Sequence record: OR896838.1
DNA: 44,740 nt
From: Escherichia phage McMelon
Reading direction: 5' to 3' (one strand)
The notes under the pieces: model-generated
The model's database searches: none
What the model was told of the DNA's origin: nothing
What the model saw: the letters and a program-made list of their open reading frames with translations, nothing else
Translations under genes and position numbers: made by a program
Shown here: piece after piece, positions 4,327 to 44,120 of the stretch
How positions within the stretch are numbered: the stretch's first letter is position 1
Layout: every line of letters begins with the position of its first letter

Positions 4327-4438
4327 CCCGTCCGCAGACCCCGACGAAGACTTGCTGGTCGATGTTAAGAATATGGAATGTGGTGCGAAGCTGAGGGCGC
4401 AAGTGCTGGAGTTGCAGAAAATAATTCGGGGGCCGTGA
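4208..4438 (+). CDS. Rz1: o-spanin (Rz1-like outer-membrane lipoprotein)
   Basis: Signal peptide with lipobox LSAC, Pro-rich mature region with second Cys; begins inside the Rz-like ORF in another frame and extends past it; RBS AAGAGG upstream of ATG. Confidence 0.6.
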   Translation: MLRALTALIVVLMLSACGSSNVPLMPLTESALRPPCKFDSPSADPDEDLLVDVKNMECGAKLRAQVLELQKIIRGP

Positions 4439-4452
4439 TGGCCCCCTTTTTG
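4427..4452. terminator. rho-independent terminator (likely bidirectional, between convergent genes)
   Basis: GGGGGCC-gtgat-GGCCCCC hairpin followed by TTTTT; the minus-strand gene stop lies at 4453. Confidence 0.7.
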
Positions 4453-5217
4453 TTAGCGCGGAATACCGCAGATTTCGTTTAACGTCTTAACATCCAGCGC
4501 CACCGCCGTGGATTTAGGCTTGTCCGGGTATGGAATGAACTGTTCCACTTCAGGCCACGCCTTGATCAGCTTCTTATCGGTATTGTGCATATCCAGCACG
4601 CCGGTAACGGTTAGTTTGAACGCGTCATACTTAGCTCGCAACTCGCGTCGGGCCTTGTCATTACGGTCCAGGCGCTTGCAGAAGTCGTGATTCGCCGGGT
4701 AGTCTATACGACCGCGTGGCATATATATCGGCAGCGCTTTTCCGTCATCGTCCAATTCGCACACTGACGCTAACAAAATTTCCTCACACCCAGGCACAAT
4801 ATCGCCGAGATCGGGAGACAGCTTATTCATGTATTTATATTCCCAGTATCCGCGATGTACTCGGAATCGGTGTCCGTCTCCGCTCAATGACACGGTACGG
4901 ACGTTTCCGCCGGCGTTGATTTCGAAAGTGGCGTCATAAACGCGGCCGATACCATACGGGCGGTCAGCGTTATAACTATACGTCGCCTTGTTGGTGTATA
5001 CGCTTACTCCGTACATCTGCGACGGGTCATCGCCGATTGCTTTAATGCGCGCGAGTAGCTCGGCGAAAGTGCGAATGCCTTCCGGCATACAGTCCAGCGT
5101 AATGGCGTACGCAAGGTCGCGAGAGTCCATCATGATGGATTTGGCTTCGGTCGCGATTTCATGGTCGCGCAGGATGTTAGCCAGAATCTGGTTTTTAATG
5201 TCTTTTGTCAGTCTCAT
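4453..5217 (-). CDS. hypothetical protein (orphan reverse-strand gene in structural module)
   Basis: 254 aa from the internal ATG (MRLTKD...) with RBS GAGGA 8 nt upstream; the longer track ORF upstream is an S/A/R-rich antisense shadow of the scaffold gene; no recognisable domain. Confidence 0.55.
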   Translation of the reverse strand: MRLTKDIKNQILANILRDHEIATEAKSIMMDSRDLAYAITLDCMPEGIRTFAELLARIKAIGDDPSQMYGVSVYTNKATYSYNADRPYGIGRVYDATFEINAGGNVRTVSLSGDGHRFRVHRGYWEYKYMNKLSPDLGDIVPGCEEILLASVCELDDDGKALPIYMPRGRIDYPANHDFCKRLDRNDKARRELRAKYDAFKLTVTGVLDMHNTDKKLIKAWPEVEQFIPYPDKPKSTAVALDVKTLNEICGIPR

Positions 5218-5246
5218 TTTTATGTCCTCGTTGTTGGTGTGCAACC

Positions 5247-5275
5247 AATATATGCAACCAATACGCGGATTGCAA
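5247..5275 (-). promoter_or_regulatory. sigma70-like promoter (TTGCAA-17-TATATT) for 4453..5217
   Basis: Minus-strand reading: TTGCAA, 17-nt spacer, TATATT, then GGTTGCACACCAACA and RBS; same -10 and downstream 21-mer as the promoter at 39364..39392. Confidence 0.45.
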
Positions 5276-5282
5276 GCGAATT

Positions 5283-5310
5283 TTGCGATTATTTTTATCA
5301 CTGATAATAT
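5283..5310 (+). promoter_or_regulatory. candidate sigma70 promoter for scaffold/capsid genes
   Basis: TTGCGA-16 nt-TAATAT upstream of the scaffold gene. Confidence 0.3.
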
Positions 5311-5365
5311 TAGAGGCGTGAAGTCGAGCGGGTGGCCCGCTCTGCCACAATCCCAGGGGGATAGC

Positions 5366-6067
5366 ATGAAACTTACTAAAGCAGAATATGACGCGTTGCC
5401 GGAAGGTATGAAGGCGCTTTTTGTTGCCGATGGTGACGGGTATAAATCAACGTTCATGACCGCAGAAGAAGTACAGGCGGAGATCAAGGGTCTGAAAGAC
5501 AACAACGCGAAGCTGGTGAGCGAGAAGAAAGCAGAAGCTGAACGTCGCGCCGAAGCCGAGCGCCTTGCGAAAGAGAAAGAGGAAGCCGCCGCGCGCAAAA
5601 ATGGCGACCTCGAAGCGATCGACAAGTCTTGGAAAGATAAGTTTGCGAAACACGAAGCAGACACATCGGGAAAAATCGAAGCCTATCGCAAGCAGATCCA
5701 CGATCTAACCATCGGCAGCGCGGCCAAAGACCTGGCGTCGAAGCTGTTCGGTAAGAATGCGGGCATCATGCAACGCCACGTAATGGACCGCCTGACGCTG
5801 GAAGACGGCGAAGACGGCAGCTTGAAAGTGCGTGTCTTGCAGGATGGCAAACCGTCCGCGCTGACTATGGAAGAGCTTGAAAAAGAGTTCCGTAATAACG
5901 CCGATTTCGCATCCGTCCTGGCTGGCACGCCAGCAGGAGGCGCTCCTAGCAAACCGACGCAGGTTGTCGAAGATGTGAAGTCTAAAATTACGATGGGCCA
6001 TAGCTTCGGTATCACCGATCTCACCAAACAGGCCGGGGATATCATCGCTAAAATGGGCGACGAGTAA
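5366..6067 (+). CDS. scaffolding protein
   Basis: 233 aa, strongly helical E/K/A-rich composition, directly upstream of major capsid gene; internal ATG of track ORF 4988..6067 with RBS GGGGGA. Confidence 0.65.
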   Translation: MKLTKAEYDALPEGMKALFVADGDGYKSTFMTAEEVQAEIKGLKDNNAKLVSEKKAEAERRAEAERLAKEKEEAAARKNGDLEAIDKSWKDKFAKHEADTSGKIEAYRKQIHDLTIGSAAKDLASKLFGKNAGIMQRHVMDRLTLEDGEDGSLKVRVLQDGKPSALTMEELEKEFRNNADFASVLAGTPAGGAPSKPTQVVEDVKSKITMGHSFGITDLTKQAGDIIAKMGDE

Positions 6068-7317: not shown

Positions 7318-7818
7318 ATGTATGGCGACCCGCAAACCTTTGTCGATTATGCCACTGCGCGAGGCGTTGAAATTACGCTGGGCGATGCAACGCGACACAT
7401 TACCATCGTTAATGACTTCCTTAACGGCATCAACTGGATCGGCGAACAGGCGGACCAGACAGGAATAGACGCATGGCCCCGCATCAATTACCCATCGGAC
7501 GGGAAGCCGGTGCGCGACACGCAAACCGAAGCCGTGGCGGTAGTGCCTGTCGGGCAAATCGTAGACTTTGCATCAATCCCCGTTGCCGTTGAGCAAGCTG
7601 TTTACCGGCTGGCGCTGTTGGTGGCTGACGAGATCGATATTTCTCCTGTCGGCGATGGTAAAGAGACTATTCGCGAAACGGTCGGCCCGATCACGATGGA
7701 ATATGACCCGGCGTCGATTGGTAGCGGGGTGTCGTTCCCGTGGTGGGATGGCTTGTTAGGCCACTGGGTTGATTCAGGCGGCAACGCCGCAGGCAATTTC
7801 GACGTATACAGGGGGTGA
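7318..7818 (+). CDS. putative head-tail connector / head completion protein
   Basis: 166 aa from ATG with AGGAG RBS (the track ORF's first ATG lies in the terminator loop); position between capsid and neck genes. Confidence 0.5.
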   Translation: MYGDPQTFVDYATARGVEITLGDATRHITIVNDFLNGINWIGEQADQTGIDAWPRINYPSDGKPVRDTQTEAVAVVPVGQIVDFASIPVAVEQAVYRLALLVADEIDISPVGDGKETIRETVGPITMEYDPASIGSGVSFPWWDGLLGHWVDSGGNAAGNFDVYRG

Positions 7819-7925
7819 TATGAATCCTGCATTACTCGCAGCTATTATCGCTGCAAATACTAAACAGCCGACGGAACAAGAACCGGAGCCAGAACCAGTA
7901 CCACCAGCACAGGAGAGTGAAGAAG

Positions 7926-8279
7926 ATGGCGGGCTTTAATTACGCGGGGTTAAAGCGGAAAGTCAATCCGCTGATTAAAAAGTTCGGCATGACGGCTACG
8001 GTGACGCGTCCGGGATCGGTTGACCGCGTAGACGGCGACGAAGTGATAATCCCGCCAACGTCGTTCGACGTCATCGGTCTTCGCGAGGAGTACAAGCCTA
8101 GCGAGATCGACGGAACGCGTATCGTTGCCGGTGATGTGAAGTTTTTATGTCGGGCGGTTGAGCAATTGCGGGTGGGAGACCTGGTTAACCTGGACGGCAC
8201 TGACTACCGGGTCGTCAACCCTAACCCGCTGCAACCGGCTGGCACTACCATGCTGTTTCAACTACAGCTAAGGGGCTAA
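7926..8279 (+). CDS. putative head-tail joining protein
   Basis: 117 aa, ATG with AGGAGA RBS; synteny only. Confidence 0.5.
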   Translation: MAGFNYAGLKRKVNPLIKKFGMTATVTRPGSVDRVDGDEVIIPPTSFDVIGLREEYKPSEIDGTRIVAGDVKFLCRAVEQLRVGDLVNLDGTDYRVVNPNPLQPAGTTMLFQLQLRG

Positions 8280-8280
8280 C

Positions 8281-8874
8281 GTGGCTGAAGTCTACTCATT
8301 CGCCGCCACTATTGCTACGTGGGTGGATAAGACGAAGGAGAACAACGACAAGGCGGTGCGGGCGTACGGTATGCAAATACTCGGACGCCTTATTGAGATC
8401 TCCCCGGTGGGCGACCCCCGCCGGTGGAAAATTAACAAGGCTTACGCGCTTGCACGCGAACACGCGAACAAGGTGAACGCCGCACAGCGCCGCAAGAACG
8501 GCGGTAAACTGAAGCGTGGGCAGAAGAAGCACGCCAGTGTGCTTGTATCATTCAAAACTAAAAACGGCAACGTCACGTTCCGCCAGCGTGGCTGGGCTGC
8601 GAAGAATTACACCGGCGGACGCTTCCGGGGAAACTGGCAGGTTACGTTCGACCGCCCGGCTGTCGGCGCTATTGACCGCGTGGACAAGGCAGGAACGGCA
8701 ACATTAGCCGCAGGGCGTGAAGTGCTGGCGCATTACGATTCAGGTGAATACGGGTCTATCTGGTTTACTAACAATGTGCCGTATGCCCAGCGACTGGAAT
8801 ATGGCTGGAGTAAACAAGCGCCTGCGGGGATTGTTCGCGTCGTAGCGGCAGAAATTAATTCGAAGGTGAAATAA
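8281..8874 (+). CDS. putative neck / tail completion protein (HK97 gp10-like)
   Basis: 197 aa, GTG start; C-terminal YAQRLEYG resembles the conserved motif of HK97 gp10-family proteins. Confidence 0.5.
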   Translation: MAEVYSFAATIATWVDKTKENNDKAVRAYGMQILGRLIEISPVGDPRRWKINKAYALAREHANKVNAAQRRKNGGKLKRGQKKHASVLVSFKTKNGNVTFRQRGWAAKNYTGGRFRGNWQVTFDRPAVGAIDRVDKAGTATLAAGREVLAHYDSGEYGSIWFTNNVPYAQRLEYGWSKQAPAGIVRVVAAEINSKVK

Positions 8875-9296
8875 TGAGCAATACTCTAATCCGCAAGGCG
8901 CTTAACAGCGTAGTAGAAGAATTATCGGTTAGCCTGAGCACTAGCACGCGCCCGATAAAGGTTAACTGGGAGAACGTGAGTGGCGACCACGCAAACGGCA
9001 GCGGTGTCTACCTGGAACCATATCTGCTTCCGGCCCCTACCCAGTTTGTGGGCTTCCAGCAGAAGGGCCGGATCTATGCAGGCGTGTATCAGATTGCCGT
9101 GGTATTTCCTGCGGGCACGGGCACACAGTATGCGAGCGAACTGGCGGACACCATCGCGACGTCTGACAAGTGGCAGGCCGTAAGGCTTACCGGTGCTGCA
9201 TTCCAGCTTCAAGACGCGCCATACACCAGTTCGGTGATTGAGGATGTTGATCGCGCCCGCATCGTGGTTACAGTGCCCTATTCCTGTTGCGCCTGA
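8874..9296 (+). CDS. putative tail terminator protein
   Basis: 140 aa, ATG overlaps upstream stop (TAATG); immediately upstream of major tail protein. Confidence 0.45.
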   Translation: MSNTLIRKALNSVVEELSVSLSTSTRPIKVNWENVSGDHANGSGVYLEPYLLPAPTQFVGFQQKGRIYAGVYQIAVVFPAGTGTQYASELADTIATSDKWQAVRLTGAAFQLQDAPYTSSVIEDVDRARIVVTVPYSCCA

Positions 9297-9356
9297 TTTG
9301 GCGCAATTCTGCGCGTGCTGTATCATTAAACCGTATATCTAAACAGGAGCTTTATT

Positions 9357-10082
9357 ATGGGTTATCAACTTCCCAACGGGTCCAGCGTCCAGATCGGGTC
9401 CGTATTAGGCAGCGGCATCGCGGTTACGGCAGCTACCAACGCCGCCGCGTCGATCTCCGACCTTACGCAAGGTTGCGTAATTACCTGCGCGGCTTCGCAT
9501 GGTCTGGTTGTTGGCGACGTTGTTATGTTCACTAAAACCCCGTGGGCCCGAGCGCTTAAACGCGCGTTCATCGTGGGTAAAGTGGATACTAACGACGTGA
9601 CGCTGGCGCGCTTCGATACTCAAGACGTCACAAAATACCCTACCGGCGCTTTCGGCGTAGGCACGCCGGGCGAAGTGGTGAAGGTGTCGAGCTTTATCGA
9701 CTTCCCGTTTATCACTAACGTTGCCGTGTCTGGTGGCGACCAGCAGACCACCACCTTCCAGCCGTTGCAGGTGAATACCGCGATCAGTCTGAACACCACG
9801 AAAAACCCGGTGGTACAGACTTACACCTTCACCCACGACGAAGAAGACCCGATCCGCCCAATCCTGGAAGACCTGGACGACACACAGAAAACCACTGTGA
9901 TTAAGTTCACTAACCCAGCGGCAGCAAGCGGCAAAGGTGAGATTCGTATTTACCCAGCTAAGGTATCTTTCCAGAAGATTCCGTCCGCTGAAGTAAACAA
10001 CGTGGAAACGGTACAATCCACTCTGACCATGCAGTCTGATATGGTTATCTACCGTAAGGATCTGGTCGAGGCATTGTCTTGA
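9357..10082 (+). CDS. major tail protein
   Basis: 241 aa, RBS AGGAG, followed by strong terminator and the G/GT chaperone pair. Confidence 0.7.
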   Translation: MGYQLPNGSSVQIGSVLGSGIAVTAATNAAASISDLTQGCVITCAASHGLVVGDVVMFTKTPWARALKRAFIVGKVDTNDVTLARFDTQDVTKYPTGAFGVGTPGEVVKVSSFIDFPFITNVAVSGGDQQTTTFQPLQVNTAISLNTTKNPVVQTYTFTHDEEDPIRPILEDLDDTQKTTVIKFTNPAAASGKGEIRIYPAKVSFQKIPSAEVNNVETVQSTLTMQSDMVIYRKDLVEALS

Positions 10083-10111: not shown

Positions 10112-10136
10112 TGGGGCCAGCACGGCCCCTTTTTTA
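10112..10136 (+). terminator. rho-independent terminator
   Basis: GGGGCC-agca-CGGCCCC hairpin followed by a T-run. Confidence 0.7.
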
Positions 10137-10828: not shown

Positions 10829-11140
10829 TGAAGCGGGACGTCCCGCTTTGTCCCGCCCTGTAAAACCGCATATCTAATCACTTTCATTGCATAAACTCAA
10901 AGCGGGACAGGCGGGACGTCCCGTTTTGTCCCACCCATGAAATGTGCATACCTATTCGAATTTCGTGCATAAAACAAGCGGGACAGAAAGCGGGACAGAC
11001 AAGGGGCGGGACAAAGCGGGACAGCACCCCGTCCCCGCCAGTGCTGCCGCGGTTTTCAGCCGATCGGGACAAGCGGGACAAAGCCCAGTCTTTCAGACTA
11101 GACGGGGGTCAACGGCCCCCCTCGTCTGAGACTGAATAAG
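10829..11140. repeat. GCGGGACA iteron / palindrome array ending in GC-rich hairpin (copy A)
   Basis: At least 10 copies of GCGGGAC or its complement, including perfect palindrome GCGGGACGTCCCGC (10833..10846); terminal hairpin GACGGGGGTCAACGGCCCCCCTCGTC; about 150 bp nearly identical to 39030..39210. Confidence 0.7.
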
Positions 11141-24756: not shown

Positions 24757-24785
24757 AATATAGTTGGTTGCATTATTGGTTGCAA
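24757..24785 (-). promoter_or_regulatory. sigma70-like promoter (TTGCAA-17-TATATT)
   Basis: Minus-strand TTGCAA, 17-nt spacer containing AATGCAACCAA, then TATATT; same family as 5247, 26426 and 39364. Confidence 0.45.
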
Positions 24786-25461: not shown

Positions 25462-25954
25462 TTAATTCACCTTCGCTCATTATTTCGATTTGTGCGCTGC
25501 CGTTTGGCGGCACTTCGTCAAAGATTATCAACTGCTGGCACTTGTTATTGCTCGGCCCGACTTCACCGGTTACAGCGTGTATAAATCGGATACGCCAGTC
25601 CAGAAGAATTATCAGGTTTGCAGTCTTCCGGGCCAACCGCGCCCACTTCGTCGACGTGTCCTGATTCAGCAGCATGACAGTCCGGCGTCCGTGCGCTGCA
25701 CACTCGACCCACGGCAGCGGATCGGAATACGGCGGGTTGCACCACTTCCACCCTTTCAACTCTGACCAGTCCACATCGAGCGCGCTGTGCTCTGCCGTGA
25801 AGTAACGCGGTAGCAGGTGGTTGGCGTCGCTTGCCGCCATATCGTAACGGAATCGGTATTTCCGTCGAAGCGGTTTAAATAAAGCTGGCGGCGTGCGCCA
25901 GCTATCTTTTTGCTCACTCTCCGTCATTCTGCGGGTCCAGTGCGTATAGGGCAA
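25418..25954 (-). CDS. DNA N6-adenine methyltransferase (phage Dam-like)
   Basis: 178 aa; WRTPP near N-terminus, DMAAS and catalytic NPPY motifs; alternative start at 25927. Confidence 0.75.
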   Translation of the reverse strand: MPYTHWTRRMTESEQKDSWRTPPALFKPLRRKYRFRYDMAASDANHLLPRYFTAEHSALDVDWSELKGWKWCNPPYSDPLPWVECAAHGRRTVMLLNQDTSTKWARLARKTANLIILLDWRIRFIHAVTGEVGPSNNKCQQLIIFDEVPPNGSAQIEIMSEGELNEYLSRRPKSSRRG

Positions 25955-26378
25955 TTTTCTCTTTACTGTTTAGCACACGCCGGACTCGGGCCGTATCCGC
26001 CGGACCAAGAGGTCGGCAATCGGAATAGTAGCTGCCGTTTGTGGGATTGCGCCACGCCACAAGCACCAGGTCTTTACGGTCGATCTTAGACTGGCGGCCC
26101 TTCGGACGCACGTACTCCTCGGCGCGTTTACAATGTTCACGCAGACCTTCGGCAGTGATGCGGTTTAGTGCCACGCTGGTGGTGTATCCGGTGCGCTGCA
26201 TAATACCCATCAACTCGAAAAGCAGTTCGAAGCGTTCCTCTAACTCCTGGCGCACTTTCTTCTCTCCTTCATATAGCGCCTTGTTGGTGTCCGCCACCGC
26301 GTTCGCCCGTTCGGCCTGTTCACGGGCTTCTAGGCATTGCGCGGCCCAGTATGCCTTTTCTTCTTGTAAAATTCTCAT
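25914..26378 (-). CDS. hypothetical protein
   Basis: 154 aa, RBS GGAGA, helical N-terminal half. Confidence 0.5.
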   Translation of the reverse strand: MRILQEEKAYWAAQCLEAREQAERANAVADTNKALYEGEKKVRQELEERFELLFELMGIMQRTGYTTSVALNRITAEGLREHCKRAEEYVRPKGRQSKIDRKDLVLVAWRNPTNGSYYSDCRPLGPADTARVRRVLNSKEKIALYALDPQNDGE

Positions 26379-26402
26379 CGTGTTGTCTCCAAGTATTAAA
26401 AA

Positions 26403-26425: not shown

Positions 26426-26454
26426 AATATAATGCAACCAATATGATTATGCAA
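26426..26454 (-). promoter_or_regulatory. sigma70-like promoter (TTGCAT-17-TATATT)
   Basis: Minus-strand TTGCAT, 17-nt spacer containing ATTGGTTGCAT, TATATT. Confidence 0.45.
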
Positions 26455-26459
26455 CCAAT

Positions 26460-29390: not shown

Positions 29391-29669
29391 CTACGCGACC
29401 AATTCAGCAACCAATAAATCGCAATCGGCTATGTTGTCAATAACGCGAACGTCAGCCCCGCGGCGGGCCATTCGCTCATGTTCTCGCACCTGGTGCGGCT
29501 TCGGTTTTCCACCGGGGCGCTTCACTTCGACGAATACTACGATGCCGTTGATGATAATAATCAGGTCGGGCGCACCTGCGCGCCCCTCCCATGCCAGTTT
29601 GCGGCAGAATCCGCCAACCTCTTTCACCCGTCGCATCAGGTGACTTTGTATCTTGCCTTCTGGAGTCAT
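29391..29669 (-). CDS. VRR-NUC domain nuclease
   Basis: 92 aa; PD-(D/E)XK-like core GAPDLIIII...VEVK typical of VRR-NUC. Confidence 0.65.
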   Translation of the reverse strand: MTPEGKIQSHLMRRVKEVGGFCRKLAWEGRAGAPDLIIIINGIVVFVEVKRPGGKPKPHQVREHERMARRGADVRVIDNIADCDLLVAELVA

Positions 29670-33158: not shown

Positions 33159-33248
33159 TTTCCAATTCCTCATTTTCACATGTATCGGGGTTATTGGAGG
33201 CCACCCCGTTCGGCTTGGTTGCCAATTTACTTGGTTGCGCTTAAGCGG

Positions 33249-36281: not shown

Positions 36282-36611
36282 ATGAATGTAAACGACGCAA
36301 TCGAAATGTTAACGAAGACTGTTTGCAGTGAGACAAGCCGGTCGTGGGCATACACCGATGCCGTGGGGGCTGTGTTATTTGAAATCGAACGACTGCGGCT
36401 TACCGAAAAAGAATTGCGCGCCAGGCTGGAACTACTCAACGGTACAGCAGCAAGCAAGCTGCAAAAACACAATGAAGAAATGGAAGAATACAAAAAGCAG
36501 GTTATCCGTTTGCGCGCCGAGGGTAAATCATGGGCGATGATTGCCGAGTTGACCGGGATTAATCAGAGCACAGTGCGCTCCTGGGTACGCAATAATAAAA
36601 CTTCTAAGTAA
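36282..36611 (+). CDS. HTH DNA-binding protein (putative transcriptional regulator)
   Basis: 109 aa; helical N-terminus; C-terminal helix-turn-helix SWAMIAELTGINQSTVRSWV; first gene of rightward operon. Confidence 0.6.
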   Translation: MNVNDAIEMLTKTVCSETSRSWAYTDAVGAVLFEIERLRLTEKELRARLELLNGTAASKLQKHNEEMEEYKKQVIRLRAEGKSWAMIAELTGINQSTVRSWVRNNKTSK

Positions 36612-36621
36612 GGCCACGGCA

Positions 36622-38886
36622 ATGAGCTTGATTAAATTCGCTGTAACAAAACCCGCTAAAAAAGGCGAAAAAGCCAGGGCGGAAAACTTCCAGATGACGA
36701 CCGATGAGTTTTTCGAATTTATCAAAGATGCGAAAGAAATCTCCTCGGTGCATATCAACAAGACGGAAGATAGAGCCGAGTATGCGCGCCGCAAGCGTAA
36801 GGCCGATGGCATCGTGGCGTATACCAGTGACGGATTGCGTCGTAAGACCAGTGCGGTGGACCGCTCGATCCTGTTCTTTGATATTGACCGCACCGACACC
36901 CGCACCCTGCGCCGCTGCCGTAAGGCGTTCATCGACGCGGGACTGGAACATGTATTTCACACCACAACCGGCGACCGCCACCCGCTGAAAGGTGGCACGC
37001 GTTGCGCTCGTTTCCTGGTGCTCACCGACAAGCCTGTACCGGCGGAAGACCTGGGCCGCGTACAGTATGCACTGTTACACCAACTGGGCCTGTCAGATGT
37101 GGACTTCGATGATTGTACGAAAGACACAAACCGCCTTATGTACCTGCCACACCAGCAGTCCGTTGTTAAGTGTCACTACGGCAAACGTGCCCGCGTCCGT
37201 CGTCTGCTTCGCCTGGCGGATAAGCTGGGAGTGGAAAAAGAGGAAGTACGACGCGAACTGACCCAGGGCGATGACGGCGTTGCGGACGGTATTCTGGATT
37301 GGTGCTTCCAGGCAGGATTCGAACCGCTGTCGTCCGGTCGTGGCTATGAAGTGCCATGCCCGAACGAACATCTGCACAGTGGTGAAGGGTCCACCGCTAT
37401 CATGGTTAAGGATGGCGAGATCCGTTTCAAGTGTATGCACACCGGCAACGAGTGCTGTTCCGAACTGAACAGACACCAGCACCTGGCGCTACGTCTTATC
37501 GGGATCCCGGACCACTTGAACGTCGAACCGCACAACATGTCACGTAAGCAAATCGCCGCCATCCTTCCGGGACTGGACGATGAGGAAGTGGAATCGTGCT
37601 ATGAACATATCGTTGATGCGGTCGGAGACGGCGACGAGTACGGCGGATGTACAGATGCAGACCTGGACAACGAGCCGGTTGCGCTGTTCAGTAAGCACGA
37701 CCCGATCATCGAGGGGCTGATTAACTTCAAATCGACCTGGTATCTTGCTGGCGGGTCGAACATCGGTAAATCGTTCTACGTGCTGGGCCAGATGGCGTCA
37801 GTATCTGCCGGTATTCCGTTCGGCGGCGCGAAGGTCGTCCAGTGCCACAACTTCTATTTCGACGCGGAAGGTGGTGAAGCCTCCAACCAGCGTAAGGAAG
37901 CATTGCAGATCAAATATGAGCACGACCTGGACAAGCTGCACATTATCGATCTGCAGTCACGCGGCTGGGATATCACCAGCAAATCCGGCTTGCGTGAAGT
38001 TATCAGCTTTATCAACCGCACCGCTAACGGCGAGCCGGTTGGCCTGGTGGCGTTCGACTCACTCAACCAGACTGTCGCGTTGCGGTCAGCCGATGCTAAA
38101 CCGTTCGACGAGAACAACGCCAGCGATATGGGCGAAGTGGTCAAAGCGCTGAAGGCTATTGCGGAAAACACAGGCGGCAGTGCGGGAGTCATCCACCACC
38201 CGGCGAAAGGTGCAAACGGCAGCAGATCTCCCCGCGGGTCCGGCGCGCTGCATGGTGCTGTCGATTCCGCGTTCTTCCTGGAGCAACCGGACGACAATCA
38301 GCCGGGCCAATTGAACCTGTACCATGAGAAGGCACGTAACGGCATCAAGCAAGCGCCGCGCGGCTTCGTTCTGCTTAAGTGCAAGGTTAAGGTGGATCTC
38401 CGCAAGTCAGAGGCGTTCGAATCGCACCAGTCCACCAGCACCGGGCCTGATTTCGGTGATGTGGTTGCAGGATGGGACGTCAAGCCGATCGCATCAACGC
38501 CACGCGACGAGACTCTTTACCTCGTACCTGTCGCCCTGGCACCGTTCGCTATTGAGCAGGCGAAGGCCGCGGGTAAGGCAGCAGTTAAGGAAGAGAACCC
38601 CGCAGGACCTCGCAACGAAAAAGAGAAAGTGCTTTATGCGGCGCTGGAAAAACTGATGGAAGATAACCCGGACCATACCGGATTCAGTAAATCGGCAATC
38701 GTCCGCCAGGCTGGACTTGCGAAAGGTGGCACATCGACGAAGGCAATAGACGATATGGTCGAGCGCGGCGTGCTCGGTTTCTATACAGATCCGCACACCG
38801 GGGCCATCTATGGGTCATCGAATATCGTCATCAAAACGAATATACCCATCACGCTTTCGGCGACCGACGATGATTTAAAAGATTAA
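36622..38886 (+). CDS. DNA primase-polymerase (AEP-type) fused to P-loop ATPase/helicase domain
   Basis: 754 aa; N-terminal acidic motif ILFFDIDR (DxD) typical of prim-pol; central Walker A GGSNIGKS. Confidence 0.8.
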   Translation: MSLIKFAVTKPAKKGEKARAENFQMTTDEFFEFIKDAKEISSVHINKTEDRAEYARRKRKADGIVAYTSDGLRRKTSAVDRSILFFDIDRTDTRTLRRCRKAFIDAGLEHVFHTTTGDRHPLKGGTRCARFLVLTDKPVPAEDLGRVQYALLHQLGLSDVDFDDCTKDTNRLMYLPHQQSVVKCHYGKRARVRRLLRLADKLGVEKEEVRRELTQGDDGVADGILDWCFQAGFEPLSSGRGYEVPCPNEHLHSGEGSTAIMVKDGEIRFKCMHTGNECCSELNRHQHLALRLIGIPDHLNVEPHNMSRKQIAAILPGLDDEEVESCYEHIVDAVGDGDEYGGCTDADLDNEPVALFSKHDPIIEGLINFKSTWYLAGGSNIGKSFYVLGQMASVSAGIPFGGAKVVQCHNFYFDAEGGEASNQRKEALQIKYEHDLDKLHIIDLQSRGWDITSKSGLREVISFINRTANGEPVGLVAFDSLNQTVALRSADAKPFDENNASDMGEVVKALKAIAENTGGSAGVIHHPAKGANGSRSPRGSGALHGAVDSAFFLEQPDDNQPGQLNLYHEKARNGIKQAPRGFVLLKCKVKVDLRKSEAFESHQSTSTGPDFGDVVAGWDVKPIASTPRDETLYLVPVALAPFAIEQAKAAGKAAVKEENPAGPRNEKEKVLYAALEKLMEDNPDHTGFSKSAIVRQAGLAKGGTSTKAIDDMVERGVLGFYTDPHTGAIYGSSNIVIKTNIPITLSATDDDLKD

Positions 38887-38961
38887 ATTCTGCGCGCATT
38901 GGTTGCCGATATGGGAATTCCCATATCGTTAGAAGATTAAATTTTGCGCGCATTGGTTGCC
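38876..38961. repeat. direct repeat - 22-bp perfect palindrome - direct repeat structure (candidate origin/operator)
   Basis: 31-bp direct repeats A(A/G)AAGATTAAATT(C/T)TGCGCGCATTGGTTGCC at 38876..38907 and 38930..38961 flanking CGATATGGGAATTCCCATATCG (38907..38928); third ATTGGTTGCC at 38986..38996. Confidence 0.6.
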
Positions 38962-39029
38962 ATTTTGAGTGTTTTTATCTGGTCGTATTGGTTGCCGTGT
39001 AGTGTAAATATAGTGAATAGTTATGCAGT

Positions 39030-39210
39030 TTTATTGCATAAAGCAAGCGGGACAAAAAGCGGGACAAACAAGGGGCGGGACAAAGCGGGACAGCACCCCT
39101 GTCCCGCCCCGGATGACGCGGCTTCCAGAGGAGCGGGACAGGCGGGACAACTCCCAGTCTTTCAGACTAGACGGGGGTCAATGGCCCCCCTCGTCTGAGA
39201 CTGAATAAAA
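39030..39210. repeat. GCGGGACA iteron / palindrome array ending in GC-rich hairpin (copy B)
   Basis: Near-identical to 10970..11140: same order of GCGGGACA units, GGCGGGAC...GTCCCGCC inverted repeat and terminal hairpin (loop differs by one base). Confidence 0.7.
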
Positions 39211-39363
39211 TCCGGGTATTGCAAAATACACGGCAGCATGATGCGAATTGCGGTCGTCGATGAACTAGGCAACCAATGCGGGTTGTATTATGCTGAGTGA
39301 AAAATGCGGTTTGCAGTCACAGCAGATAGCGATCAGCTTTTTCATGCGCGTGATTAATATTGG

Positions 39364-39392
39364 TTGCACCCACCCTGGCACCCTGCTATATT
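39364..39392 (+). promoter_or_regulatory. sigma70-like promoter (TTGCAC-17-TATATT) for rightward early ORFs
   Basis: TTGCAC, 17-nt spacer, TATATT, then GGTTGCACACCAACA and RBS GAGGAC; -10 plus downstream 21-mer identical to the 5247..5275 promoter. Confidence 0.5.
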
Positions 39393-39420
39393 GGTTGCAC
39401 ACCAACATGAGGACCGAACA

Positions 39421-39732
39421 ATGCGAGCATTAATCTGGAATTACACAATGGCGGTGGCGAAGCTGAACGAAGCGAAGGCACTAAACGGCAACGTAGACGA
39501 CGCGCGCCAGTTAGCCGCGCTGGCACACCAAGCTATAATGTGCGCCTTCGACGAAATGGACGCCTGTCTGGAAGGGCCAGAGTCCGGGCCGCTGCGCAAG
39601 GCAGTCCACGAATATGCGCTTGCGTTCTCCGATGAGCGCCTGGCGTATCGCTTCGGGATCGGCGAGACGGCAGTGACAAACGTCGCCCGGATTAAAGCCC
39701 AGCGCGAACTATTTGCCCAGCTTGCGAAATAA
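39421..39732 (+). CDS. hypothetical early protein
   Basis: 104 aa from ATG with GAGGA RBS; no domain recognised. Confidence 0.5.
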   Translation: MRALIWNYTMAVAKLNEAKALNGNVDDARQLAALAHQAIMCAFDEMDACLEGPESGPLRKAVHEYALAFSDERLAYRFGIGETAVTNVARIKAQRELFAQLAK

Positions 39733-39741
39733 GGGGTCAAA

Positions 39742-40011
39742 ATGGGCCGTAGACGAGCTAAACAGCTTTCGTGGCATATTCCCCTACATTGCATACGAAT
39801 ATGGGCTGAGAATGCGAATGAGGGGGATTCTGTATTCTGGTGCTATCGCGATGATGTGAAGCCGTTAACGCAGACTCGCTACTTGCACCAGTTCGCAGCA
39901 CAACACGATTTCAGGGTGCGGACTTCCTTGCAACCAATGGGAATACGTATTACATTACGCCGGAAGCCCGCCATTGAGCGGGTAGGCAAACACTGGAGAC
40001 TGAGCAAATGA
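39742..40011 (+). CDS. hypothetical protein
   Basis: 89 aa, basic, RBS AGGGG. Confidence 0.45.
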   Translation: MGRRRAKQLSWHIPLHCIRIWAENANEGDSVFWCYRDDVKPLTQTRYLHQFAAQHDFRVRTSLQPMGIRITLRRKPAIERVGKHWRLSK

Positions 40012-40181
40012 ACAAACAAACCGAGTTATTCGAGAAGTGGCAAAGCAAGACCACGCGAATAATTTATTTTTTGACCCAGGAAACAAACGGCAACGTCACG
40101 ATATTACACCCTAAGAGTGGTCTGAGTCGCACTATTTCGCGTAGCACACTGATTTGTAACTACAGGAAACTGGAAAAATGA
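40008..40181 (+). CDS. small hypothetical protein
   Basis: 57 aa ORF below track threshold; ATG overlaps upstream stop and its stop overlaps the downstream ATG. Confidence 0.35.
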   Translation: MNKQTELFEKWQSKTTRIIYFLTQETNGNVTILHPKSGLSRTISRSTLICNYRKLEK

Positions 40182-40717
40182 AACTGATATTCCGCAATAA
40201 GCATAACGGGCGATTCCTTACCCCGATCGAAGTGCTGCCGAACTATGTGCGCATGTACCATGAGCCGAGCGACCGCGTATTCTGGTACAAGAAATACGGC
40301 CTACATGAACATTTGCAGGTTGTGCATCACGACGTGCGGGTCGGGGATGTGCTGCGTGATGCGCGTGACGGGTCGCTGTTAGCGGTGCTCCGCGTTAGCA
40401 CGGACGGCGTTATGCTGCGCAGTGGTAAAACACAACGCGGCGTTCTGCTCACGGGCCTGGTGAATTACGCCCGCGTAGGCCGTAACTATAAACTTAAGCG
40501 CCCTGGTGTAGTGGCGAAAGAGATCACCCGTACGGAACACCCATATACCAAATACAACGAGCGCAAGGTGCGCGAGCATATCGACAACGCCAGGGCGCAA
40601 GCTGCCGCTATGATTCAGGCCGGTGATGACGCAAAGCGCTTTGGCATTGGCGTGCTTCTGGTATACCCTGACGGCAGCATGAAGTCTACCGATCCGCGCG
40701 GGGTCGTTCTGAGATGA
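40178..40717 (+). CDS. hypothetical protein
   Basis: 179 aa; no recognisable motif. Confidence 0.5.
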   Translation: MKLIFRNKHNGRFLTPIEVLPNYVRMYHEPSDRVFWYKKYGLHEHLQVVHHDVRVGDVLRDARDGSLLAVLRVSTDGVMLRSGKTQRGVLLTGLVNYARVGRNYKLKRPGVVAKEITRTEHPYTKYNERKVREHIDNARAQAAAMIQAGDDAKRFGIGVLLVYPDGSMKSTDPRGVVLR

Positions 40718-40860
40718 GTGCGACGATCCGTGATATGCTGATGCACAACCGCTTTGAGATAGGCGGTCGGGTGTTTCGCAATTACTTCGTGGCGCGAGCA
40801 TGGGCGCGCCATATTGGCAAACCGGAAGGGGCAATTCGATGCTATACGTCTTCGCGGTAG
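40714..40860 (+). CDS. small hypothetical protein
   Basis: 48 aa ORF, ATG overlapping upstream stop (ATGA); weak. Confidence 0.25.
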   Translation: MSATIRDMLMHNRFEIGGRVFRNYFVARAWARHIGKPEGAIRCYTSSR

Positions 40861-40894
40861 TATGTGGCGGTAGTATGTGGCGGTAGTCTGGCGG
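40854..40894. repeat. tandem direct repeat (13-bp unit GCGGTAGTATGTG, about 3 copies)
   Basis: GCGGTAGTATGTG GCGGTAGTATGTG GCGGTAGTCTG GCGG read directly from sequence. Confidence 0.6.
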
Positions 40895-40949
40895 CCCTGG
40901 TGTTGTTGGCGGCTGTTATTAGTCTGGTTAAATACCTATGGAGCAGATT

Positions 40950-41237
40950 ATGATTCATGATGTGATTTATTGGTTTGGTATGGCCAGCATGTTATGCCTG
41001 GTTACGGGAGTGCTGGGCGCAATATGGGTATTCCTGGTATGGCCCGCCGTGGAAGCTGCCAGCATTACCCGGATGACGTTCCAGATATACAAGCGCCGCG
41101 GGATCACGGAGCACCCGACCAGGTTGCGCATGTGGTGGCTGTGGTATCGCGATATGATAGGGGGCAGGATGTTCGAGGCCGTCCGATCGGAAGGGTGGGA
41201 GTGGAAAGGCGTCGGCAAGTGGTCCATTTTCGATTAA
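40950..41237 (+). CDS. small membrane protein
   Basis: 95 aa from second ATG (GGAG 5 nt upstream); one strong TM helix; Trp/Arg-rich C-terminus. Confidence 0.4.
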   Translation: MIHDVIYWFGMASMLCLVTGVLGAIWVFLVWPAVEAASITRMTFQIYKRRGITEHPTRLRMWWLWYRDMIGGRMFEAVRSEGWEWKGVGKWSIFD

Positions 41238-41254
41238 TTATGCAAGCGTGATAT

Positions 41255-41289
41255 AGTCCCAGTGAGCTAAAACTTACTGGGACTTTTTT
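41255..41289 (+). terminator. rho-independent terminator
   Basis: AGTCCCAGT-loop-ACTGGGACT hairpin followed by TTTTTT. Confidence 0.6.
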
Positions 41290-41580
41290 ATGGATAAGCT
41301 AAACGAGTGGTTATTCGCCCTCGCATGTCTGGCTGGCGGCTTCGTAGGCGCACGCATTCATGGCGAGGCTACGAAGGGGTCGCTAAACTTCGTTTTGTAT
41401 GTTGTAGTTGGCTTCCTGTGTGCCATATTTGGCGCACCGGCTATTGCCGAGTGGGCTGGTTTGTCGGGGGAGCGCACTGTCGCCGGTTTGGGCTTCGTAA
41501 CCGCAATCTTCTGGATGCCAATCGCCGACCGGATCAGGGAGACTATTGCGTCGTTCCGACTTCCGGGGGGTGCAAAATGA
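41290..41580 (+). CDS. holin-like membrane protein (3 predicted TM helices)
   Basis: 96 aa; three hydrophobic segments, charged C-terminus; precedes second membrane protein and lysozyme; ATG abuts terminator T-run with no SD. Confidence 0.4.
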   Translation: MDKLNEWLFALACLAGGFVGARIHGEATKGSLNFVLYVVVGFLCAIFGAPAIAEWAGLSGERTVAGLGFVTAIFWMPIADRIRETIASFRLPGGAK

Positions 41581-41822
41581 TTATCTCCGTCCTGTTGTTT
41601 GTTATCATCGGGGCTTCGTCCCTGTTTAACGTGTATGCGCCGTCCGTCCGGGATGGCATTTTCGGTCGGGTGCTGTATCTGTTAACGGCAATGGTCTGTA
41701 TTATCGGATTGTTGCAAACAGGAGACGTATCAGATGCCACCTGGACCGCGTTAATCTGGCTGTTTGCATTGCGCACCCTGCGTAATGCTGTTTTGAATGG
41801 GGTAAAACATGCGATTCAGTGA
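41577..41822 (+). CDS. holin/antiholin-like membrane protein
   Basis: 81 aa, 2-3 hydrophobic helices; ATG overlaps upstream stop; overlaps lysozyme start. Confidence 0.45.
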   Translation: MIISVLLFVIIGASSLFNVYAPSVRDGIFGRVLYLLTAMVCIIGLLQTGDVSDATWTALIWLFALRTLRNAVLNGVKHAIQ

Positions 41823-42300
41823 CAACGGTCTAAGATTCACGGCAGCATGGGAGGCTTTCAGCCCGGTGCCGTATTTCGCGACCAAGAAAGAGCAGGCCCG
41901 CGGCCTGTACACCTGGGGTTATGGTCATACCGGCACTAATCCGCCTCGAAGCATTACCCGCGAGGAAGCGCTGGCACTGCTCAAGCGCGATGTGGCGTAT
42001 GCTGAGGACTGGGTGAACAAATACGCACATCCGAGCATTAACCAGGCGCAATTCGACGCGCTGGTGGACCTGGTAATCAACGCCGGTCCGGGTCCGATCG
42101 TACCGGATGACGTCGCGAATGATTTCGATGATGCGGTCCGCCTGGGCGACTGGGCGAAGGTACGTGCTACTCTGCCGCAGTTCCGCAAGCAAGGTGGCGA
42201 AGTGCTTAAGGGTCTGGTGCGCCGTGCAATCGGCAGACAGGCGTTGTTTGATGGTAAGCAGTGGGACGTTGCCGAACGAATCGGTCGTAACGCTGCATAA
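41809..42300 (+). CDS. endolysin (phage lysozyme, GH24-like)
   Basis: 163 aa; N-terminal catalytic-region pattern typical of phage lysozymes (WEAF...GLYTWGYGHT), conserved ALVDLVINAG. Confidence 0.8.
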   Translation: MRFSDNGLRFTAAWEAFSPVPYFATKKEQARGLYTWGYGHTGTNPPRSITREEALALLKRDVAYAEDWVNKYAHPSINQAQFDALVDLVINAGPGPIVPDDVANDFDDAVRLGDWAKVRATLPQFRKQGGEVLKGLVRRAIGRQALFDGKQWDVAERIGRNAA

Positions 42301-42489: not shown

Positions 42490-42517
42490 TAAGCCCGGAA
42501 TTAACCGGGCTTTTTAT
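42490..42517 (+). terminator. rho-independent terminator
   Basis: AAGCCCGG-aattaa-CCGGGCTT hairpin followed by TTTTATT. Confidence 0.7.
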
Positions 42518-42520
42518 TGC

Positions 42521-42550
42521 TTGACTCGCAACCAACATAGGGGCCATACT
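42521..42550 (+). promoter_or_regulatory. candidate promoter (TTGACT-18-CATACT)
   Basis: Directly after terminator; followed by GCAACCAATCAAC motif and strong RBS. Confidence 0.35.
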
Positions 42551-42579
42551 GCAACCAATCAACGAGAGGAGTAATCAAG

Positions 42580-44079: not shown

Positions 44080-44107
44080 TAGCCCGCCGATTTGGTGGGC
44101 TTTTTTG
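44080..44107 (+). terminator. rho-independent terminator
   Basis: AGCCCGCC-gatttg-GTGGGCT hairpin (one G-T wobble) followed by TTTTTT. Confidence 0.65.
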
Positions 44108-44111
44108 TGCC

Positions 44112-44120
44112 TGTTATAAT
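44112..44120 (+). promoter_or_regulatory. candidate extended -10 promoter (TGtTATAAT) upstream of TerS
   Basis: Perfect TATAAT preceded by TGn; 70 nt upstream of the TerS ATG. Confidence 0.35.

Follow-up and report, generated by a model that had tools for sequence, protein, structure and literature searches.

The block of small genes ahead of the lysis cassette of the Dhillonvirus McMelon and its possible regulatory role

Organization of the block

The DNA analysed here, referred to as the window, is the 44,740-nt sequence of Escherichia phage McMelon at its full length, and it is a complete genome of Dhillonvirus, a genus of HK578-like E. coli siphophages. Between the replication gene encoding the helicase-primase and the lysis and late genes, the plus strand carries five small open reading frames: ORF1 (39421–39732, 103 aa, pI 6.1), ORF2 (39742–40011, 89 aa, pI 11.1), ORF3 (40008–40181, 57 aa, pI 10.0), ORF4 (40178–40717, 179 aa, pI 10.2), and ORF5 (40714–40860, pI 11.2), the last encoding 48 aa, or 41 aa if its second ATG, at 40735, is used. 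With pI values of 10.0–11.2, the products of ORF2 to ORF5 are strongly basic. The lengths given in the preliminary description of this DNA stand for the four latter frames, while the 104 aa ascribed there to ORF1 include the stop codon. The overlapping stop and start codons it reported are found at three junctions, each a 4-nt ATGA, at 40008, 40178, and 40714; ORF1 and ORF2 are separated by a 9-nt gap that includes AAGGGG, and the ATG of ORF1 is preceded, 8 nt upstream, by GAGGA.

The chain is indeed led by a promoter, as had been proposed. A sigma-70-like promoter, read from the sequence at 39364–39392 of the plus strand, heads the block with a TTGCAC −35 element (39364–39369), a 17-nt spacer, and a TATATT −10 element (39387–39392), and is overlapped by two direct repeats, ATATTGGTTGCAC, at 39357–39369 and 39388–39400. 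As it fits the sigma-70 consensus at only 8 of 12 positions, it was missed by a generic promoter scan. This promoter cassette is kept in 29 of 31 related loci, always ahead of the first gene of the block; a second copy of the cassette, TATATTGGTTGCACACCAACA..GAGGA, is located on the minus strand at 5275–5247. Directly after the promoter there is an insertion slot, occupied in some relatives. Host RNA polymerase would transcribe the block from this promoter, producing a leader of about 25 nt, from approximately 39399 to the ORF1 ATG at 39421, which contains no hairpin.

Downstream of the five frames, two copies of GGTAGTATGTGGC form a 13-bp tandem duplication (40856–40881, plus strand) that is absent from all 16 relatives compared. 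It breaks a hydrophobic mini-ORF of 33 aa, which roughly half of the relatives have in unbroken form, leaving here a GTG-started 29-aa remnant at 40864–40953. The terminal gene of the transcription unit, ORF6 (40938–41237, plus strand, 99 aa, phrog_2531), is found in 16 of 16 relatives and has a dN/dS of 0.24; its product has a hydrophobic N-terminal stretch and is annotated as a membrane protein in some of them. It is followed on the same strand by an intrinsic terminator at 41255–41289, with a 12-bp stem, a 6-nt loop, and a T6 run. The fold of this terminator has a z score of −5.8, it is kept in 29 of 31 loci, and in one relative, L005, the stem contains a compensatory extra G-C pair. The block is a genus-specific operon, extending from a conserved sigma-70-type promoter to a conserved intrinsic terminator before the lysis cassette, and its transcription unit comprises ORF1 to ORF5, the disrupted mini-ORF, and ORF6.

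The T-run of the terminator abuts the holin ATG at 41290 and there is no room for a promoter of the holin's own, which leaves read-through as the only way to the lysis genes. Further plus-strand terminators are located at 42491–42512, 44081–44101, 4428–4446, and 10113–10129. A separate extended −10 promoter, TGTTATAAT (44112–44120), serves the late operon ahead of the small terminase gene; a late-gene activator or an antiterminator from the block is hence not required, a point against a regulatory role of the block.

Distribution and conservation of the genes

The distribution of the genes was assessed against the 156 phage records whose helicase-primase is at least 80% identical to that of the window. 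Tblastn matches to ORF1, ORF2, ORF4, and ORF5 are present in 156, 156, 151, and 151 records, respectively, and these four are genus-wide core genes (151–156 of 156 Dhillonvirus genomes). Each of them has a full-length match to a PHROG family annotated as of unknown function: phrog_9839 (E = 2.5e-47), phrog_12533 (5.4e-58), phrog_10243 (5.2e-70), and phrog_13628 (9.4e-38). The order of the genes between the helicase-primase and the holin is the same in all 16 relatives examined. They correspond in order and locus to the 'hypothetical protein' genes gp49–gp53 of HK578-like phages such as SECphi4, Bas84, SM_S22, and HK578, present in more than 150 deposited genomes; the window's genes do not differ from these in kind, and only its ORF3 and ORF4 alleles are rare.

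The core genes were found in Dhillonvirus only, and their products are lineage-restricted orphans. Nothing above threshold was found for any of the ORFs in Pfam, NCBIfam, or PADLOC, and for the five ORFs and ORF6 PADLOC, which covers known anti-phage defence proteins, gave no match at E values up to 1. Sequence and profile searches of the PDB with ORF1 to ORF5 were likewise negative, as was an Rfam scan of the whole window. A collection of 5.8 billion proteins queried with ORF4, ORF2, and ORF1 returned close Dhillonvirus-type relatives only; the ORF1 family comprises 103 protein clusters, on contigs up to the size of a Dhillonvirus genome. A phmmer comparison of the five ORFs with all 433 ORFs of the window yielded self matches only, i.e., no paralogues. 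The earlier statement that the products carry no recognisable domains thus holds at the sequence level (Pfam, NCBIfam, PADLOC, and PDB searches), and no homologue is annotated with a housekeeping phage function, all of them being labelled 'hypothetical'. In the literature no Dhillonvirus transcriptome, toxicity screen, or function at this locus was found. Since there is no significant homology to any characterised protein, functional assignments rest on fold class, charge, and position.

Selection was estimated as pooled Nei–Gojobori dN/dS over the window and 16 relatives. The values for ORF1 to ORF5 are 0.44, 0.20, 0.32, 0.44, and 0.09, with 0.11 for the holin; the constraint on ORF2 and ORF5 is comparable to that on the holin. 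Taken with the tblastn matches across phage records, values of 0.09–0.44 indicate that the ORFs are not chance frames. The contrary notion, that the frames, or the two under 60 aa if not all five, arose by chance and are no genuine genes, might draw on the failure of ORF3 to match a family in any library (Pfam, PHROG) and on the weak Shine–Dalgarno sequence of ORF5, but it can practically be dismissed: ORF5, with a dN/dS of 0.09 at a pS of 0.28, is present in 151 genomes, at 95% or higher amino-acid identity in 129 of the 151 records, the frame of ORF3 is intact in 24 records at identities down to 44%, and the ATGA coupling is kept.

In contrast to the core genes, ORF3 is an accessory mini-gene filling a swap-in cassette slot between ORF2 and ORF4. 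It occurs in 24 of 156 genomes, with a best identity of 64%, and its dN/dS of 0.32 was computed from eight copies. Its GC content of 41%, compared with 54% for the genome, represents a foreign composition. In relatives the slot contains a basic gene of the ORF3 type, an unrelated acidic gene of 44–50 aa, both, or neither. A paralogous relation of ORF3 to an ORF4 barrel was considered and rejected (hhalign probability 0.3%).

Predicted properties of the core products

Judged by its sequence, ORF1 is apparently all-helical, and it is composed of two unequally conserved parts. Its N-terminal two-thirds are variable, with numerous mosaic alleles that diverge strongly although the neighbouring sequences are highly conserved, whereas the C-terminal helix-turn-helix (HTH)-like motif, ERLAYRFGIGETAVTNVARIKAQRELFAQLAK, is invariant, and the C-terminal 35 residues are nearly so in 34 diverse homologues; accordingly, dN/dS is 0.12–0.22 in the HTH part and 0.4–0.6 upstream of it. 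The HTH candidate is a sequence pattern, LAYRFGIGETAVTNV. Its score against Pfam HTH_Tnp_4 is sub-threshold (13.7 bits, cutoff 27), and weak HTH matches recur among the 34 homologues, 21 to HTH_Tnp_4, none with E below 0.028, and five to Cro; no curated Pfam gathering threshold is reached and no PDB profile is matched. In an hhalign comparison with the 109-aa regulator of the window (36282–36611), the motif falls in register with the genuine HTH of that protein, at a non-significant E of 0.11. A HMMER profile search of 1.84 billion representatives with ORF1 retrieved its own family and one marginal unrelated match.

Small phage transcription regulators of two parts, in which a helical domain precedes a C-terminal HTH, include Mor and C of phage Mu and late activators whose genes lie ahead of the packaging genes in other siphophages. 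ORF1 may be likened to such regulators in its similar size, its apparently all-helical nature, and its C-terminal HTH-like motif, and it is also encoded in a corresponding position, where the replication region ends and before the lysis and late genes. In sequence, it matched neither Mor nor another family of regulators.

For ORF2 the predicted fold starts with an N-terminal basic helix (GRRRAKQLSW...), followed by a generic alpha/beta sandwich of beta-alpha-beta-beta-beta order (pLDDT 80). ORF2 looked shortened at its N-terminus in some relatives, but in the one checked, CEC_Kaz_2018, the frame is open and only the ATG is changed, and the N-terminus is therefore not claimed to be dispensable. 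ORF5 (phrog_13628) is ultra-conserved.

The structural model of ORF4 contains two tandem SH3/Tudor-like beta-barrels (residues 1–102), confidently predicted, with the five strands of the fold; past residue 102 a disordered linker leads to a long helix and to a small hairpin at the C-terminus. Among the fold neighbours of the modelled barrels are the C-terminal Tudor domain of PcrA/UvrD, the RNA polymerase-interacting domain (RID) of CarD and Mfd, the N-terminal domain of RapA, and the KOW domains of NusG/Spt5. With these RNA polymerase-interacting Tudor-like and KOW domains ORF4 has no sequence-level relationship, the identity being 8–16%, and ribosomal SH3-like proteins, PsaE, and NdhS score nearly as high. 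Neither CarD/TRCF-RID, UvrD/PcrA Tudor, nor KOW families are among the Pfam matches of 33 ORF4 homologues at E values up to 1. No relative of ORF4 turned up in the 185,579 species genomes of bacteria and archaea that were scanned, and a fold search of BFVD returned only its own family. The UniRef name of the phiEco273 homologue, HNH endonuclease, was rejected, since no HNH-family Pfam match exists in the 33 members and the ORF4 model lacks the beta-beta-alpha-metal core; the GenBank label of the same protein is 'hypothetical'.

ORF4 is represented by many recombining, divergent mosaic alleles, while the flanking genes are highly conserved, and only two records contain an ORF4 more than 90% identical to that of the window. 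In some plaque-forming phages, e.g., Bas84 and CS16, it is naturally truncated or split. A dN/dS above 1 was obtained solely for one gappy segment of this gene (approximately 1.1), and positive selection was not accepted, as the alignment there is unreliable.

Gene regulation or counter-defence

Considered together, the evidence leans to nucleic-acid-binding regulators over classical anti-defence proteins, with the exception of one swappable mini-gene. The proposal is that the core products are small nucleic-acid- or RNA polymerase-directed factors that would tune the expression of phage and host genes or DNA transactions before lysis; it is put forward tentatively, as quite possible if short of probable. 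In this scheme ORF1 is a putative regulator that would bind DNA by the invariant HTH-like motif at its C-terminus, while its variable N-terminal part may touch a partner that varies as well. ORF2 and ORF5, both conserved and basic, would bind nucleic acids, and ORF4, as modelled, would be a basic adaptor with two SH3/Tudor-like barrels whose alleles are shuffled by recombination. The SH3/Tudor-like fold docks bacterial proteins on RNA polymerase or nucleic acids. The familiar DNA-mimic inhibitors are acidic; the basic character of ORF2 to ORF5 and the HTH-like motif of ORF1 fit a nucleic-acid-binding, regulatory role better. Classical exchangeable accessory behaviour, possibly anti-defence, is seen only in the ORF3 slot and in the post-promoter slot of some relatives.

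The main competing explanation, in line with the preliminary description, takes the block for an early anti-defence or host-shutoff arm, in which each small protein binds and inhibits a host immunity or housekeeping target. This is rather unlikely and only partly supported. In its favour, the proteins are lineage-restricted orphans and the ORF1 N-terminus and ORF4 are hypervariable mosaics with conserved flanks. The allelic diversity of both would also be expected from an arms race with host immunity, and so would the truncation or splitting of ORF4 in viable phages, which counts against the regulatory proposal. Two cassette slots, the post-promoter one and the one that the low-GC ORF3 fills between ORF2 and ORF4, point the same way, as does a chain of unrelated genes in a sister subfamily, the Guernseyvirinae: in Serratia phage Tsm2 a long gap after the helicase-primase gene is followed, in the same position and style, by eight small ORFs of unknown function and then by holin, holin, and lysozyme genes; for the two Tsm2 ORFs compared (89 and 173 aa), hhalign showed no relation to ORF1, ORF2, or ORF4 (E above 0.1). 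On the other hand, four of the five ORFs occur in essentially every Dhillonvirus genome, and ORF2 and ORF5 are under purifying selection as strong as that on the holin, features unusual for accessory counter-defence genes. The anti-defence explanation is further weakened by the strongly basic products, the lack of dN/dS above 1 except in the ORF4 segment mentioned, and the absence of PADLOC, Pfam, or PDB matches.

The known loci of this kind in the genus also map elsewhere. The sole characterised Dhillonvirus anti-defence gene is the anti-Tmn gene, ORF35 of SM_S22 (Yamashita et al. 2025, PMC11846954). Its homologue in the window, at 25914–26378 on the minus strand, encodes a protein 74% identical to that of SM_S22 and is preceded by a promoter (TTGCAT, 17 nt, TATATT) with ATTGGTTGC repeats. 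The genes of the block resemble it in being small, Dhillonvirus-restricted orphans and in their similar type of promoter, a likeness that speaks for the anti-defence explanation; yet anti-Tmn is another gene, encoded elsewhere, and shows no resemblance to any of the five ORFs. Those published defence-escape mutations of SECphi4, SECphi6, and SECphi18 that could be traced map to the genes for DNA polymerase, SSB, the primase-helicase, and a 56-aa protein that is not among the five ORFs.

Two other functions may be considered for the block. It could encode accessory replication or recombination proteins that assist the helicase-primase encoded upstream, at an origin close by, with a cluster of GCGGGACA at 39047–39149 as iterons. 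The block comes straight after the helicase-primase gene and a gap of approximately 530 nt, in which there are strong hairpins and seven copies of GCGGGACA (17 in the whole window, compared with two expected), and the basic products and the HTH-like motif of ORF1 would suit such a role. This is nevertheless improbable: the block has its own conserved promoter, the hairpins separate it from the helicase-primase gene, a duplicate of the repeat element precedes the tape-measure gene, an odd site for an origin, and no similarity to replication protein families was found in Pfam, PHROG, or NCBIfam. Alternatively, one of the products could be a processive antiterminator, Q- or N-like, for read-through of the 41255–41289 terminator into the lysis genes. 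That these genes are reachable by read-through only, that further plus-strand terminators lie at four sites, and that NusG/Spt5 KOW domains are among the fold neighbours of ORF4 would favour it. The arginine-rich start of ORF2 (RRRAKQLSW) may recall the arginine-rich motif of lambda N, but lambda N is disordered while the prediction for ORF2 is a folded protein of the alpha/beta type, and with no nut/boxB site or boxB-like hairpin in the short leader and no Rfam match in the window, a lambda N-like role of ORF2 was rejected. ORF4 has no cysteines and so cannot have a cysteine-based zinc finger such as that of lambda Q, nor was there a match to any Q family. As the small terminase gene is preceded by an independent extended −10 promoter and leaky termination would suffice for lysis, an antiterminator in the block is very improbable.

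A more specific form of the regulatory proposal, itself quite improbable, would make ORF4 a tandem Tudor-like protein docking on the host RNA polymerase in the manner of CarD, the PcrA/UvrD C-terminal domain, and the Mfd RID, and forming with the HTH-like ORF1 and the ultra-conserved, basic ORF2 and ORF5 a Dhillonvirus-specific system for reprogramming the polymerase. If true, reprogramming could mean, for example, shutting off the early promoters with ATTGGTTGC repeats or read-through into the lysis genes, and the many alleles of ORF4 and ORF1 would stem from co-evolution with a partner that varies; such a system would be previously undescribed.

The block consists of ordinary, already annotated hypothetical genes and by itself answers no open question. 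Dhillonviruses, which feature in the BASEL collection and in phage engineering, are among the most often isolated coliphages. For these phages the analysis separates the genus-core genes, ORF1, ORF2, ORF4, and ORF5, from the exchangeable cassettes, i.e., ORF3 and the post-promoter slot, and defines the limits of the operon by its promoter and terminator, which guides the choice between deletion targets for regulators and candidates for anti-defence screening.

The five-ORF block and its genomic setting

Used as a megablast query, positions 38900-41300 matched 158 phage records at 80-95% identity. Nearly all of these records belong to the genus Dhillonvirus (HK578-like, ~44-kb siphophages of Escherichia or Shigella), and the window is a complete genome of the Dhillonvirus type. 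Packaging, head and tail genes are located at 1-23 kb on the + strand and the replication and modification arm at 23-36 kb on the - strand, followed on the + strand by genes for a small HTH protein (from 36.3 kb), the helicase-primase (36622-38886), the five-ORF block treated here, and the lysis proteins (two holins and one endolysin, 41290-42300); after the lysis genes come those for an exonuclease and the small terminase.

The chain of five small coupled ORFs proposed in a preliminary description was recovered at the same coordinates in the ORF listing and the sequence, all on the + strand: ORF1 (39421-39732, 103 aa), ORF2 (39742-40011, 89 aa), ORF3 (40008-40181, 57 aa), ORF4 (40178-40717, 179 aa), and ORF5 (40714-40860, 48 aa). 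ATGA overlaps occur at three junctions, and the 9-nt gap between ORF1 and ORF2 contains AAGGGG. Pooled Nei-Gojobori dN/dS values for the window and 16 relatives (8 copies for ORF3) are 0.44, 0.20, 0.32, 0.44, and 0.09 for ORF1-ORF5, respectively, with 0.24 for the downstream ORF6 and 0.11 for the holin in the same set; ORF5 is among the most constrained genes of the region. In a tblastn search of 50,697 phage records, ORF1 and ORF2 were each found in 156, ORF4 and ORF5 each in 151, and ORF3 in only 24, with a best identity of 64%; as a yardstick, 156 records encode a helicase-primase at least 80% identical to that of the window. Both ORFs shorter than 60 aa, ORF3 and ORF5, are therefore real. 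Chance open frames are excluded, as all five ORFs have dN/dS of 0.09-0.44 and occur across 24-156 phage records.

ORF2 and ORF5 share >90% identity in most genomes. Of the 151 records with ORF4, 127 have an allele <60% identical to that of the window, and the ORF4 alignment shows segment-wise mosaicism. This diversity looks like a reshuffling of old alleles rather than rapid positive selection, because synonymous divergence is high too (pS of 0.48 versus 0.28 for ORF2 and ORF5); dN/dS reaches ~1.1 in a single ORF4 segment, a gappy one. Two plaque-forming phages lack an intact ORF4, which is truncated in Bas84 and split in CS16. Between ORF2 and ORF4 lies a cassette site, occupied by a basic ORF3-type gene, by an unrelated acidic gene of 44-50 aa whose product ends in NGIATVCDGDTKTIEEIEETEQ, by both, or by nothing. 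The acidic gene is present in many relatives, sometimes beside an ORF3-type gene, and lies in the ORF3 slot of the related loci L003 (4270-4422), L006 (40739-40891), L007 (1703-1837), L011 (1724-1858), and L004 (2870-3004). The GC content of the window ORF3 is 41% versus 54% for the genome.

Limits of the transcription unit

A promoter ahead of the block, alluded to in the preliminary description, was located on the + strand (TTGCAC at 39364-39369, a 17-nt spacer, TATATT at 39387-39392); it was missed by a generic scan because it agrees with the consensus at just 8 of 12 positions. GAGGA lies 8 nt ahead of the ORF1 ATG, and 29 of 31 related loci retain the arrangement ATATTGGTTGCA[C/T], variable spacer, TATATTGGTTGCACACCAACA, GAGGA. 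In some relatives an extra ORF of 59-65 aa is inserted between the promoter and ORF1, and the promoter therefore heads the block. A short gap after ORF5 separates it from ORF6 (40938-41237, +, 99 aa, phrog_2531), whose product has a hydrophobic N-terminal stretch and is annotated as a membrane protein in some relatives. A strong intrinsic terminator follows (41255-41284, +; 12-bp stem, fold z = -5.8), with the holin ATG (41290) directly after its T-run. Again 29 of 31 loci share this layout, one of them with a compensatory extra G-C pair. The transcription unit therefore consists of the promoter, ORF1-ORF5, ORF6, and the terminator. The lysis genes would be reachable only by read-through of this terminator, which their expression seems to need.

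Within 41255-41292, the sole Shine-Dalgarno-like GGGA ahead of the holin sits in the 3' arm of the terminator hairpin, and the hairpin might gate holin translation as well. At 40856-40881 the window carries two tandem copies of the 13-bp GGTAGTATGTGGC, a duplication that none of the 16 relatives in the comparison has. About half of the relatives have an intact 33-aa hydrophobic mini-ORF (MLYVFAVVCGGSLAALVLLAAVISLVKYLWSRL); in the window the duplication shifts its frame and regenerates a GTG-started version of 29 aa (mini-ORFs at 40839-40886 and 40864-40953).

Repeats shared with other promoters

The 9-mer ATTGGTTGC occurs 27 times with one mismatch allowed, versus 13 expected, a count reached by 0 of 100 shuffles. 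Most copies form close direct-repeat pairs that lie across part of a sigma-70-like promoter (-35, spacer or -10) on one strand or the other, with sites at 5241-5262(-), 24763-24783(+), 26434-26459(-), 29395-29415(-), 33214-33238(+), 36083(+), 38898/38952/38987(+), 39269(-), 39359/39390(+), and 42528-42559(-). The promoters so overlapped include a strong leftward one at 36105-36076, one at 42521-42550 (+), and those of the nmad5-like, anti-Tmn-like, and Lar-like genes. Because the block promoter shares its repeats with several other promoters, among them the strong divergent ones near 36.1 kb, we infer that the promoters so marked may form a shared regulon. The pairs resemble operators for a phage regulator, and two proteins are candidates to bind them: ORF1 and a 109-aa HTH protein (36282-36611) that matches Pfam HTH_23 and Sigma70_r4_2 above threshold.

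On the - strand at 5275-5200, a promoter (TTGCAA, 17 nt, TATATT) and the ORF1-type leader that follows it (GGTTGCACACCAACA..GAGGA..ATG) sit inside the longer annotated nmad5-like ORF (4453-5664, -). Translation therefore probably begins at the ATG near 5205 and yields a ~250-aa protein, which would account for the same escape mutation being numbered K296E in phage SM_S22 and K216E in SM_A8 (PMC11846954). Two intergenic gaps of the + strand share a duplicated ~200-nt element whose copies are ~90% identical; one copy (10945-11140) precedes the tape-measure gene, and the other (39013-39208) lies after the helicase-primase gene, ahead of the ORF1 promoter. The stretches 10849-11080 and 39047-39149 hold 14 of the 17 copies of GCGGGACA in the window, versus 2 expected by chance. 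A pair of strong hairpins (RNA fold z = -3.4) is predicted in the 39-kb copy of the element, which had no match in Rfam. The query matched at two places in most related genomes, which suggests that they may share the duplication; the element could represent iterons or an origin, a protein-binding array, or a structured RNA. A strong terminator at 44081-44101 is followed immediately by a perfect extended -10 element, TGTTATAAT (44112-44120), with the small terminase ATG (44190) ~70 nt further on; host RNAP may use this candidate promoter to transcribe the packaging and structural operon.

Protein families and possible functions

The absence of recognisable domains noted in the preliminary description holds in sequence searches: none of the ORFs of the block had a significant match in Pfam, NCBIfam, PADLOC or PDB. 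ORF1, ORF2, ORF4, and ORF5 matched PHROGs end to end, all of the function-unknown class, and ORF3 matched none. Large-scale protein searches with ORF4, ORF2, and ORF1 returned Dhillonvirus-type relatives only, an exhaustive profile search of 1.84 billion representatives with ORF1 gave its own family and one marginal unrelated match, and ORF4 had no relative in 185,579 bacterial and archaeal species genomes. ORF1 looks all-helical from its sequence; its N-terminal two-thirds are highly variable (103 clusters when grouped at 90% identity; two or more length classes), and its C-terminus, ERLAYRFGIGETAVTNVARIKAQRELFAQLAK, is practically invariant (dN/dS 0.12-0.22), with a helix-turn-helix sequence pattern whose matches are all sub-threshold. 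ORF4 (pI 10.2) is predicted to fold into two tandem SH3/Tudor-like barrels (residues 1-102, pLDDT ~90 or higher), followed by a disordered linker, a long helix, and a small hairpin. Its fold neighbours include Mfd, RapA, and the NusG/Spt5 KOW domains, with ribosomal SH3-like proteins scoring nearly as high; a fold search of BFVD gave its own family alone. ORF3 (pI 10.0) and ORF5 (pI 11.2) are also basic.

The block is thus a genuine operon, specific to the genus and delimited by a promoter and a terminator. Four of the five genes are core and the fifth is exchangeable, and the products are small orphan proteins, mostly very basic. Tentatively, the core products may act on nucleic acids or RNA polymerase and so regulate gene expression of the phage or the host ahead of lysis. 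On this reading ORF1 would regulate by binding DNA, ORF4 would serve as a Tudor/SH3-type adaptor, and the ORF3 slot would come closest to a classical accessory or anti-defence cassette. A serious though somewhat less likely rival is the original proposal of an anti-defence or host-shutoff arm. It is favoured by the orphan status of the proteins, their allelic diversity, the cassette slots, and a positional analogue in the Serratia phage Tsm2 of the sister subfamily Guernseyvirinae. The helicase-primase of Tsm2 is 46% identical to that of the window, and eight small ORFs lie between it and the holin (7342-9652 of the Tsm2 record, L032), the two compared being unrelated to ORF1, ORF2 or ORF4; across these siphophage lineages the position is conserved and the content is not. 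For most of the block, however, strict core conservation and basic charge count against this proposal, as does the strong purifying selection that ORF2 and ORF5 are under.

The only experimentally characterised Dhillonvirus anti-defence gene, anti-Tmn (ORF35 of SM_S22; 25924-26388, -), whose activity is allele-specific (PMC11846954), has a 74% identical homologue in the window at 25914-26378 (-), outside the block, with a promoter at ~26455-26427 (-) consisting of TTGCAT, 17 nt, TATATT, and two ATTGGTTGC repeats. The published escape mutations of phages SECphi4/6/18 that were located lie in DNA polymerase, SSB and primase-helicase genes, and others affect a 56-aa gene or the sequence ahead of it; the product of that gene is none of ORF1-ORF5. 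No transcriptome, proteome or toxicity data for the block locus were found in the literature. A replication-accessory role of the block is unlikely, and a dedicated antiterminator role is less likely still, as the small terminase gene has an extended -10 promoter of its own directly after the 44081-44101 terminator.

The genes of the block are already deposited in >150 genomes, where they are annotated as hypothetical proteins, and PHROG families exist for them; new are the operon limits, the division into core and cassette, the fold predictions, and the negative outcome of exhaustive homology searches. The block is typical phage 'dark matter' with a few testable leads.
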